Source: Dehalococcoidia bacterium
Lineage (GTDB): Bacteria > Chloroflexota > Dehalococcoidia > SZUA-161 > SpSt-899
Direction: 5' to 3'
DNA length: 64,000 bases
Assembly: GCA_034434815.1 (NCBI GenBank)
Contig: DAOTYO010000005.1
Span: forward strand, 13,118 to 77,117
The notes below the pieces were generated by a model. The model had not been told where the DNA came from and made no database searches. It worked only from the letters and a program-made list of their open reading frames with translations. Below, piece after piece: positions 23,969 through 25,729 of the stretch (positions within the stretch are counted from its first letter, which is position 1; every line of letters starts with the position of its first letter). The translations under genes and the position numbers were made by a program.

Positions 23969-24535
23969 ATGATGGAACGGTTGCAGAGGCTCCTGCCCCG
24001 GCAACAAAGGGCAAGCAGACTCTCGATCGGGGTCATCACGGTAGCATGCTTTGCCGTGGCAGGCCTTCTGACGTACGCTGCCCTGGCCAATGATACCGAG
24101 AACGTGCCCGTCTATGGAACGGAGACCGCCGGAGCGCTTGAACTGAGAGGAAACGTCTTCGCCCGAACCGAGACCACCGATTCAGGCCAAGTAACGGAGG
24201 TGATCCTCACGGTGACCATCCCTCAGGATGGCTCCCCGGTGAACCTCACCCCCCCGCCGAACAACGTGGTCGAAATCTCCTACGCCGATCCCTATCAAGC
24301 GGTCACGGATCTTCCGTTCAGAGCGGAGGAATACATCGCAGGCGATGGAGACAAGATGTTGGAAGCCGGTGAGACTTTTCTAATCGGGATTCCCCTCGCA
24401 GATGCATTGAGCCCGGGTCTGGGTCCGGATACCCCTTTCACCATTACGATCAAGACTCCCGACGGGTCCGCGCTCGCCATTCAGCGGAGCACGCCTTCCC
24501 ATCTGGTACCCGCCATGAATCTCGATCTGAAGTGA
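23969..24535 (+). CDS. membrane-anchored beta-rich protein (possible archaellum FlaF/FlaG-like accessory protein)
   Basis: N-terminal TM segment LSIGVITVACFAVAGLLTYAALA followed by a beta-strand-rich soluble domain; AAGGGGG RBS; directly upstream of an archaellin-like gene. Confidence 0.45.
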   Translation: MMERLQRLLPRQQRASRLSIGVITVACFAVAGLLTYAALANDTENVPVYGTETAGALELRGNVFARTETTDSGQVTEVILTVTIPQDGSPVNLTPPPNNVVEISYADPYQAVTDLPFRAEEYIAGDGDKMLEAGETFLIGIPLADALSPGLGPDTPFTITIKTPDGSALAIQRSTPSHLVPAMNLDLK

Positions 24536-24580
24536 TAGATGCACTGCTTTAATCGATCAACAACATCGGGGAAAAAGCGA

Positions 24581-25729
24581 ATGATCGGATCGGCCAGCCG
24601 CATCCACCGTAATGAACGAGGCATCACCGGCCTCGAGACCGCGATCATTCTGATCGCGTTCATCGTGGTGGCTTCCGTCTTCGCTTACACCGTGCTATCC
24701 GCCGGTCTCTTCTCCGCTCAGAAGACCGAAGAGGTAACGCGCACAGGGATCAATAAAACGGAATCCACGATCACTGTGGAAGGCAACGTGATCGCCTACA
24801 AAGGGACAGCCAACGGGGATGAGTGCATCACAAAGCTCTCGTTCACGGTTTCGAAGGCCCTCCCCGGGGGCGGATCCGTAGATCTCACCCCCTTCTACCG
24901 GATCGATTCAAACGGCGCTCTCGCCTCTCCGATCATCAGCGATTGTGATACGGTTTGGACATCTACCGGCACCGCGAATGCCACCGTCAGCACCGATGGC
25001 TCGGATTACAAGGAGAGTCCTCGAAGCGTCAAGATCGCGGTGGCCTCCGCTTTCACCAGCGGGACCATTGCCTACTACAACACCGCGGAGGAGATGGATC
25101 TGACCTATGCCCGGCAGATCAGCCTCTGGATCAAGGCGAGCGCCGATGTGGACGAGGATGTTCTCGTGCTGAGCCTGTGCTCAGGCACGGCCGCCGCCAC
25201 ACCCGTCGAAACCCTCAGTCTGCCGGCACTGGCGGCCAACGTCTGGACCCGGGCCACGGTGGATATCTCCACCCCGGGAGCCTCTACCCTCTCATCCATC
25301 GAATCGGTGGCCCTGAGCGCATCTTCGGACCCGGGCGATATCACCATCTATCTGGACGAGGTCAGAACCCGCACCGATTCGGATACCATCACCGGCAAGA
25401 ATGCCACCATGATCGCCTACAACGATGAAAACACTTTTATAGACAACGTAGCGTGGACCGTGGAGTTTTCCGGCGGATACGGCTCCGGAACCAACGATTA
25501 CCTCCTCCAGAATTCCGAGAAGGCCACGATCACGGTCTGGCTTCAGAACTTCGATGGAACGAGCTATTCCAATGGGTCCGGGACCGATGACCCGTTCATC
25601 GATTCGAACGCCGCCCACCTCAAGACCAGCTCTCTGTTCAACATCCAGATCATGCCCCCCGAAGGCGCCACGCTCCTTCTGACGAAGCGCACCCCCGCAT
25701 ATCTCGATCCCATCATGCGTCTGTTCTAG
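24581..25729 (+). CDS. archaellin/archaeal-type pilin-like protein with class III (prepilin-like) signal peptide
   Basis: NERG|[38 protein letters not shown] closely matches the conserved archaellin N-terminal domain (RGxxGIGTLIVFIAMVLVAA...AGFLQSK...EE). Ser/Thr-rich beta domain follows. Start chosen at the Met preceded by GGGGA. Confidence 0.6.
   Translation: [382 protein letters not shown]

Follow-up and report, generated by a model that had tools for sequence, protein, structure and literature searches.

A probable relocated copy of a two-gene archaellum filament module, with a phage-related outer domain, in a Dehalococcoidia-type bacterium

A 64,000-nucleotide stretch of contig DAOTYO010000005.1 from a Dehalococcoidia bacterium of the Chloroflexota (GenBank assembly GCA_034434815.1, positions 13,118 to 77,117 of the forward strand; hereafter the window) encodes two adjacent archaellin-like proteins on the same strand (Table 1). 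The downstream gene specifies an archaellin of the ArlB type whose globular part is interrupted by two insertions, the larger of them a β-jelly-roll domain resembling carbohydrate-binding modules (CBMs), and the upstream gene, whose open reading frame (ORF) stops 45 bp 5' of it, specifies a shorter and divergent archaellin paralog; we refer to the two as the long archaellin and its partner. From comparison of their sequences and genomic settings, we consider it likely that the two genes are a paralogous copy, moved to a new place, of a two-gene filament module of the archaellum (the rotary swimming filament of archaeal type) in a Dehalococcoidia-type Chloroflexota bacterium.

Table 1. Features of the window, with positions counted from its first nucleotide; a slash in a motif marks the class III cleavage site
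Feature	Position	Strand	Basis
Long archaellin, ArlB-type, 382 amino acids (aa), two insertions	24581-25729	+	
Class III signal peptide, aa 1-14, predicted cut after Gly14	24581-24622	+	homolog conservation and analogy
N-terminal hydrophobic helix, aa 15-49, would-be filament core	24623-24727	+	AlphaFold2 (AF2) model and 9i5h alignment
Inserted ~165-aa β-jelly-roll, CBM-like outer domain, aa 103-268	24887-25384	+	
Second small insertion, aa ~319-341, DPFIDSN..HL	25535-25603	+	gap between 9i5h residues 143 and 147
Partner, 188 aa, divergent archaellin paralog: N-terminal helix and archaellin β-sandwich	23969-24535	+	
Degenerate class III site R14/A15-S16-R17-L18-S19 of the partner (archaellins: G/I-T-G-L-E)	24008-24025	+	alignments
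Invariant acidic motif D126-x-D128-x3-E132-x2-E135 of the partner	24344-24373	+	
Perfect 17-bp inverted repeat (AGGTGTCCTCGGGAAGG cg CCTTCCCGAGGACACCT)	23706-23741	+	direct sequence reading
tRNA-Thr(CGU), CCA encoded	22033-22107		
MarR	25812-26312		
MetRS	26591-28273		
EF-P	40730-41380		
bL28-like 60-aa ORF beside FakA/DegV	49467-49649	-	hand-read motif

The long archaellin matches the Pfam Arch_flagellin model (PF01917) with 65.4 bits (E 1e-17; cut-off 29.5) and the archaellin/pilin N-terminal domain model TIGR02537 with 30.9 bits (cut-off 20). These profile matches, which an earlier sequence-only reading of this DNA had named as a check, bear out its description of an archaellin-like protein with a signal peptide of class III, and the N-terminus that it quoted was correct. 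A profile built from 40 members of the family finds the archaellum filament of the bacterium Litorilinea aerophila in the PDB (9i5h; E 3.6e-41), which is also the best structural match. In the AF2 model residues 17-49 form a helix. The N-terminal helical stretch (aa 15-49) aligns to residues 1-35 of mature 9i5h, where a hand count gives about 25 identities in the first 30 positions, and the fold as a whole is an N-terminal helix followed by a β-sandwich, as in solved archaellins. Across the 40 homologs G14, T16, G17, L18 and E19 are invariant or nearly so; the cleavage motif is that of all ordinary archaellins in related archaellum (arl) loci, and the N-terminal 35 residues are near-identical to those of these canonical archaellins. 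Judged by these matches, the 382-aa protein is a true archaellin whose class III signal peptide is intact, and by analogy with L. aerophila ArlB, whose mature form starts at Ile29 (PMC12488501), it would be cleaved after Gly14. A Pfam scan of the protein at E up to 1 returned only Arch_flagellin and no N_methyl match, and the motif is ITGLE rather than G/FTLIE; accordingly we rejected a bacterial type IV pilin identity. The Glu at +5 that had been taken as a bacterial-pilin trait is indeed present, but the A. pernix archaellin 7txi (G/IVGIE), which is of the archaeal arl2 type, and L. aerophila ArlB (ITALE) share it.

An alternative start at 24539, giving 396 aa, is possible, but homologs and external gene calls favour the start at 24581, and a GGGGA sequence lies 8-13 nt 5' of that ATG. 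The product is rich in Thr (12.3%), Ser (11.0%), Ala (10.5%) and Gly (7.1%), with four N-X-S/T sequons (aa 58, 133, 274 and 331). A homolog search with it gave 2,445 matches. Full-length relatives are ~380 aa long and 48-93% identical, and all those with a named source come from Chloroflexi/Dehalococcoidia metagenome-assembled genomes (MAGs), whereas many matches of ~221 aa cover only the N-terminal 30% and are ordinary archaellins (named 'flagellin FlaB' at JGI).

The partner is far more divergent. It reaches 22.6 bits against PF01917, under the cut-off of 29.5, and has only 17 database relatives, all of ~185 aa. Nevertheless, its family profile matches L. aerophila ArlB (9i5h) end to end (E 1.5e-27), and this chain is its best match in both sequence and structure. 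When run on the ORFs of related loci (numbered with an L below), the profile scores 105-138 bits on ordinary short archaellins and 54-81 bits on long archaellins. In contrast, it does not match the ArlG/F-like ORFs of L004, L006, L011 and L012, and probes made from ArlG/F miss the partner in turn; there is no FlaF or FlaG chain among the PDB sequence matches of the profile, and no NCBIfam ArlG or Pfam FlaF_Ig-like match to the partner. The 188-aa ORF of the sequence-only reading is real, but its proposed kinship with FlaF/FlaG is not borne out: the ArlB-matching profile and the lack of any ArlG/F match speak against that identity, which we rejected, and the predicted fold is not closer to FlaF/FlaG than to archaellins. 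That the partner might still be a stator or anchoring protein of the FlaF/FlaG (ArlF/ArlG) type we regard as highly unlikely. By these profile comparisons it is an archaellin paralog that lacks the hallmarks of a bulk, processed subunit, and not a FlaF/FlaG homolog.

To place the pair in its wider genomic context, we used a subfamily-specific scan of GTDB genomes with the alignment limited to the insert and the C-terminus; a GTDB scan with the single 382-aa protein had given no match. Three MAGs were found to carry two long-archaellin loci each, on different contigs: a detached pair (L008, L009 and L010) and an archaellum locus (L013, L012 and L011, respectively). In MAG GCA_964548045.1 the detached pair is on contig 1 (L001/L010) and the archaellum locus L011 on contig 12. 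The latter runs through four archaellins, the partner, the long archaellin, a ~410-aa protein, ArlG-like, ArlF-like (FlaF_Ig-like, 30.8 bits against 28.4), transglutaminase-like, PAS-STAS and anti-sigma-kinase-like genes to ArlH (NF052589, 215.5 bits, cut-off 215), ArlI (NF058587, 634.8 bits, cut-off 550) and ArlJ (NF004703, 369.5 bits, the top match but under its cut-off). MAG bin.164 combines L009 with L012, whose gene order is that of L011. In SI047_bin16/HOC20, which combines L008 with L013, the MAG contig of L013 stops just past the pair and before the motor genes, but an identical metagenome contig, L108, runs on into ArlH/I/J. ArlG/F-like and ArlH/I/J genes beside the second pair are therefore confirmed in two of these MAGs and, via the identical contig, in the third; HOC20 locus tags also tie the detached and in-locus types together, HOC20 being the only genome linked by cluster look-up. 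Furthermore, L016 and L021 hold the pair and ArlH/I/J on a single contig, the L004 contig also has ArlI, and samples ERZ27256772 (L017 and L021), Ga0180431 and Ga0233415 each contain both the detached and the in-locus type. Of the two options that had been raised for the window genes, a detached filament-subunit locus of a bacterial archaellum is the one that agrees with these data, since MAGs with the same detached pair have a complete archaellum locus, ArlH/I/J included, on another contig.

The association of the two genes is strict. Wherever a locus includes upstream sequence (7 distinct detached and 8 distinct in-locus cases), the partner is the gene directly 5' of the long archaellin; both ORFs are intact in all 7 detached loci, and within 10 kb of the detached pairs there is no other archaellin and no motor gene. 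Crude neighbour-joining trees of the two genes give the same three clades, with a monophyletic and deep detached clade that includes the window, which suggests that the genes moved together. Between the window and other detached copies identity is 47-52% for the partner and 64-69% for the long archaellin. The G+C content of the window lineage is 0.59, as against 0.56 in its closest named relative (L101), 0.46-0.53 at other pair-bearing Dehalococcoidia loci and 0.63 in the outgroup L006.

Between the ArlF-like gene and ArlH, archaellum loci that house the pair carry transglutaminase-like, PAS-PAS-STAS and anti-sigma-factor-kinase-like HATPase_c_2 genes (L011:9471-12093; also L012, L016, L021 and L004), which look like partner-switching regulators. 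No recognisable ArlCDE was found in the arl loci of L011, L012, L016, L021 and L004; in its place a ~400-aa protein without a Pfam match follows the long archaellin (L011:7025-8269). Separately, the Dehalococcoidia-type contig L017, which carries a detached pair, encodes a 352-aa protein with Tubulin and CetZ_C domains (L017:15127-16185, plus strand) beside a normal FtsZ, FtsA, RsmH and MraZ. CetZ, a member of the tubulin family from Archaea, has been connected with motility and rod shape in Haloferax, and this gene may be a further archaeal import in archaellated Chloroflexota.

The partner family departs from the archaellins chiefly at its N-terminus. The consensus is G/[VI][ST]R[LIV]x, in which Gly+3 is replaced by Arg and the +5 position is M, S, T or A, never Glu. 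Gly-1 is kept in most in-locus partners (EKG/VTRLMV) and lost in L004, L016, L001, L017 and the window (QQR/ASRLS), with R, Q and R at -1 in the window, L001 and L017, respectively. By contrast, conservation in the β domain is strong. Across 21 sequences 29 columns are invariant, all of them outside the signal region, and these include the acidic motif D-x-D-x3-E-x2-E. In our hand reading this motif corresponds to the 9i5h segment DYDTTGDTLLEQGE, which holds the metal-binding residues of ArlB; the metal site of L. aerophila ArlB is D121/D127/E131/E134 (PMC12488501). The loss of the conserved Gly+3 and Glu+5 argues against a bulk role in the filament, and the partner may instead serve the long archaellin specifically, in low copy number, as its terminal or priming subunit, a proposal that we make only tentatively, by analogy with the Glu5-less minor pseudopilins at filament tips. 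Minor pseudopilins of the GspK type in type II secretion have no Glu5, keep a cleavable Gly-1 and are thought to be the first-in tip subunit. Like GspK, the partner has a pilin fold without an acidic +5 residue and is encoded beside the subunit that it would serve; the likeness is one of analogy, as GspK belongs to another branch of the type IV filament superfamily and retains the cleavable Gly-1 that the window partner lacks.

The degeneration of the partner invites the view that the detached pair is simply a redundant duplicate that is drifting to loss and has no function of its own. Besides the missing Gly-1 of some detached partners (those of the window, L001 and L017), the faster evolution of the partner relative to the long archaellin among detached copies would agree with such drift. 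However, the retention of both ORFs at seven distinct detached loci, the constraint on the invariant partner columns, the acidic motif among them, the invariant N-terminus of the long archaellin, the recurrence of its exact sequence on seven contigs from several samples and the depth of the monophyletic detached clade together make decay of the pair a very improbable explanation.

The second peculiarity of the system lies in the globular part of the long archaellin. Its alignment to 9i5h falls into three collinear pieces (query residues 15-102 to chain residues 1-87, 269-318 to 92-143 and 342-377 to 147-182), and the unmatched aa 103-268 (~165 aa) and aa 319-341 (~23 aa) are therefore insertions. 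What had been described as a single β domain of ~330 aa is β-rich as stated, but is in fact an archaellin β-sandwich split by a CBM-like jelly-roll. In the AF2 model and by structure comparison aa 103-268 fold as a separate jelly-roll, in which W126, W183 and W222 are invariant and C122 and D259 conserved; C122 and C200 are also conserved in phage homologs. The smaller insertion, absent from L. aerophila ArlB, carries a DPFID-x-N-x2-HL motif and may contact the outer domain or bind metal; in 40 homologs G326, G332, D337, P338, F339, D341, N343 and L347 are nearly invariant.

The jelly-roll insert has no Pfam family at E up to 1, and a sequence comparison with the PDB gave no match up to E 10. 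It shares the β-jelly-roll fold of CBM30, CBM11, CBM8 and CBM4/22 and of the HFTV1 turret (8qpg), a phage virion decoration. It differs from these systems in lacking a sequence match to Pfam/CAZy-type CBM families or PDB chains, so that it has the fold of the β-jelly-roll CBMs without belonging to a described CBM sequence family, and in sitting inside another domain rather than being appended to it. An exhaustive phmmer search with the insert alone recovered 1,601 representative proteins, of which 597 reach an E value of 1e-10 or lower. Archaellins make up only 4 of the best 147 of these 1,601 matches. Most of the 147 are, by eye, proteins of 640-730 aa that start with M-[AT]-T-x-Y-x-D-x-E-x-G-N-D and bear the module at about residues 70-215; the majority is a by-eye count, a strict regular expression for this start having tagged only 14 proteins. 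Among the others of the 147, a tail-collar protein of a phage has the module twice, and one protein is SU10-adaptor-like. The module-bearing family of ~660 aa has 193 confirmed matches in IMG/VR, and on one viral contig a member is encoded between the major capsid and head-tail adaptor genes. PHROGs holds no family for the insert or for this phage family, apart from a weak 'head decoration' match. On the strength of these relationships, the insert is an unannotated module for surface display that is widespread and shared with virion proteins of phages, in which most of its homologs are found, and the family of about 1,600 members, which has no Pfam annotation, may deserve a description of its own.

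Two further Chloroflexota archaellins, P0171 and P0039 (L006:10001-11122), also contain the module, but one β-strand ahead of the insertion point seen in the window family. It thus entered archaellins at two positions, which implies, as far as the alignments go, either two independent insertions or a local rearrangement. A related architecture is seen in P0138, a 672-aa membrane protein with a PilN domain and three tandem jelly-roll modules like the archaellin insert; pilN/pilO genes are also found near the arl locus of L. aerophila (PMC12488501). As the other homes of the module, namely phage head decoration, tail fibre and the PilN fusion, are surface-display settings, adhesion or glycan binding is its most likely role, to judge from fold and context.

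If the pair is indeed a relocated filament module, the long protein would be made as a pre-archaellin and cut after Gly14 by a PilD/PibD-type prepilin peptidase encoded elsewhere, and ArlI/ArlJ of an arl locus elsewhere in the genome would polymerise it through its N-terminal helix. We infer these two steps because all features needed for processing and packing are present and the helix is close to that of ordinary archaellins. The presence of an arl locus and peptidase in the organism of the window is extrapolated from the detached-pair MAGs, which have arl loci, and from the co-occurrence of the two types in samples. The insert would be displayed on the filament surface, because a 165-aa domain in a loop of the globular domain fits only outside the tightly packed filament. 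An archaellum, or a stretch of one, would in this way be coated with CBM-like domains, and the extra outer layer would probably be adhesive or glycan-binding. A partner with an intact cleavage site would probably be the first-in, tip subunit. The window partner more likely stays anchored in the membrane, since the Arg at -1 probably prevents cleavage; an uncleaved N-terminal membrane helix with an external β-sandwich is plausible for it, and the earlier comparison with FlaF/FlaG, though wrong as to homology, might at most be apt for a membrane-anchored function of this copy.

Several observations weigh against this interpretation. As the sequence-only reading had noted, motor and processing genes are missing from the window: Pfam detected no ArlH/I/J, T2SSE/T2SSF or A24 peptidase in its ~50 ORFs, and phmmer probes of ArlG/F/J/H/I matched none of its ORFs of at least 80 aa, so that there is no ArlF/G in the 64 kb. 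The 198-kb contig that resembles the source of the window is unbinned. The in-locus-type proteins P0026, P0028, P0031 and P0032 all come from samples other than that of the window, and the window's sample, 3300009503, is not among the matches of a JGI metagenome scan. The N-terminal helix of the partner is modelled at low confidence, with a predicted local distance difference test score below 50 for residues 1-54, and the loss of Gly-1 in several detached partners could mean a decaying rather than a specialised role. No CBM sequence family matches the insert, whose carbohydrate binding is predicted from its fold. Finally, comEC/comEA adjoin the pair in three of the four other detached loci inspected (L001, L002 and L017), and in L001 the pair is ~6 kb from a response regulator and a PilB(MshEN+T2SSE)-PilC-PilM cluster.

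The last of these observations raises the alternative that the detached pair, instead of belonging to an archaellum, makes a type IV filament of its own for adhesion or DNA uptake, in which the bacterial type IVa pilus/Com machinery (PilB/PilC/PilM and ComEA/ComEC) uses archaeal-type pilins. A CBM-like surface domain would suit an adhesin, and the fusion of the same module to a PilN-domain protein, P0138, would fit as well. However, the comEC/comEA genes are convergent with the pair on the opposite strand and so are not co-transcribed with it, and they are absent near the window copy. Moreover, arl loci themselves contain paralogous pairs, placed between their ordinary archaellins and their ArlG/F-like genes, and the helix and cleavage motif are of the archaellin type, not the bacterial G/FTLIE, with no N_methyl match. 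We accordingly see this alternative as quite unlikely. In a broader formulation, the pair builds something distinct from an ordinary swimming filament: either an adhesive, glycan-binding tip or sheath nucleated by the partner that lacks Glu5, or, for the detached copies, an archaeal-type filament made by bacterial type IV pilus/competence machinery. Either way the outer domain would have been exchanged with virion-decoration proteins of phages, so that phages and host filaments may target the same ligands; this too appears rather unlikely to us. A relocated copy of the archaellum module remains our preferred interpretation.

The surroundings of the pair in the window are bacterial, as had been recognised, with MarR, MetRS, EF-P, FakA/DegV, a tRNA with encoded CCA and, by motif reading, L28; OmpR-type response regulators are also present. 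These genes bear on the trivial explanation that an archaeal fragment was joined to a bacterial contig by misassembly or contamination. Beyond the archaeal affinity of the protein family nothing speaks for it. The G+C content is even across the window (0.56-0.62), on either side of the pair bacterial genes are no more than 1-2 kb away, and all source-named close homologs are in Chloroflexota MAGs. A protein identical over all 382 aa is encoded on 7 contigs from at least 3 metagenome samples. Gene order is unchanged at the three of these places that are listed and in independent ENA and JGI assemblies. Archaeal contamination is thus effectively refuted, and we rejected it.

The inverted repeat of Table 1 begins 10 nt past the stop of the upstream FAD-oxidoreductase gene and is probably a terminator that separates this gene from the pair. 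The terminator scan missed this hairpin, which has no T-run; the promoter/terminator consensus scan of 23600-25900 gave no promoter-like sequence and a single terminator-like one, on the minus strand, a yield at or below chance. As the hairpin follows the preceding gene, the pair is probably its own transcription unit.

Beyond the tRNA and the FAD oxidoreductase, upstream of the pair, lies a sugar-modifying cluster (13577-21845, minus strand) with genes for a PLP-dependent decarboxylase/aminotransferase-like protein, an ADH-GFO/IDH/MocA fusion, a UDP-GlcNAc 2-epimerase, an NAD epimerase/dehydratase, GT4/GT1 and GT2. It could glycosylate the Ser/Thr-rich archaellins, but we did not adopt a functional link to the pair, as other detached loci do not preserve this linkage. 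About 5.5 kb 3' of the pair, a 1,517-aa hybrid sensor kinase is encoded (31269-35822, minus strand); it has GAF, HisKA and HATPase_c domains, multiple PAS domains and two receiver domains. The arl loci L006 and L016 are likewise flanked by large proteins rich in PAS domains. Farther upstream, the ORF at 7478-8575 (plus strand) matches FBPase_3 (PF01950) with 595 bits, which we take to be the class V fructose-1,6-bisphosphate aldolase/phosphatase, an enzyme characteristic of Archaea and of a small number of deep-branching bacteria. Another ORF, at 10257-11192 (plus strand), comes after a MoaA-like radical SAM gene and joins RNase H (aa 3-126) to MoaC (aa 144-279), an unusual fusion.

Archaella in Chloroflexota are already known (published in 2025), as are large archaellins of Archaea with outer domains. 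The closest relative of the window system is that of L. aerophila (Sivabalasarma et al., Nat Microbiol 2025, PMC12488501), for which a 2.7-Å filament structure and swimming motility have been reported. The same study found complete archaellum clusters, of the arl2 type and with arlG-arlF order, in 243 of 3,780 Chloroflexota genomes, the class III peptidase being normally encoded outside the cluster; the earlier statement that bacterial archaella are a recent discovery therefore stands, but they are not confined to a few Chloroflexota. GCA_964548045, GCA_028711995 and GCA_034189655 are not among the supplement rows listed in that paper. The window proteins share with L. aerophila ArlB the arl2-type N-terminus, the β-sandwich, the acidic metal-site motif and the host phylum, whose archaellum was acquired from Archaea. 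They differ in that ArlB is 183 aa long when mature, without an outer domain or the smaller insertion, and in that arlB heads a single arl locus, whereas the window genes are detached from motor genes. Neither 'insertion' nor 'minor' occurs in the searched text of that paper, and a partner without Glu5 is not described there.

The architecture of the long archaellin has its nearest parallel in ArlA2/ArlB of Haloarcula marismortui (Meshcheryakov et al., Nat Commun 2026, PMC13357602), where an archaellin core likewise bears an extra outer domain, which coats the filament, and large archaellins form sheathed archaella. As in these proteins, the core of the window archaellin is interrupted by an extra globular domain. 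H. marismortui also resembles the present case in having paralogous large archaellins at separate genomic places ('ecoparalogs' on different replicons) that co-exist with archaellins of ~200 aa. Two archaellins encoded in one operon and built into one filament are seen in Methanocaldococcus villosus ArlB1/ArlB2 (Gambelli et al., Nat Commun 2022, PMC8821640), but there both are described as bulk subunits that alternate along the filament, in contrast to the window partner with its lost N-terminal residues.

As the cross-domain transfer of the whole archaellum machine into bacteria is established (published 2023-2025), a bacterial archaellin is in itself no news. Three features of the present system are, however, not mentioned in the literature that we examined on bacterial and large archaellins: an outer domain, CBM-like and phage-related, on an archaellin from a bacterium, an obligate archaellin-like partner without Glu5, and a duplicated, detached copy of such a pair. 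The locus thus adds that the imported machine has diversified in Dehalococcoidia-type bacteria, through a surface module shared with phages, a degenerate subunit and a relocated second copy of the filament module. Judged by its residues, the partner without Glu5 is a candidate for a terminal (cap or tip) subunit of the archaellum. If the long subunit does coat filaments, bacteria would have their own counterpart to the sheathed archaella known from Haloarcula, comparable also with the decorated outer domains that bacterial flagellins carry, and a coat of binding domains would make adhesion by archaella testable in this Dehalococcoidia-type group.

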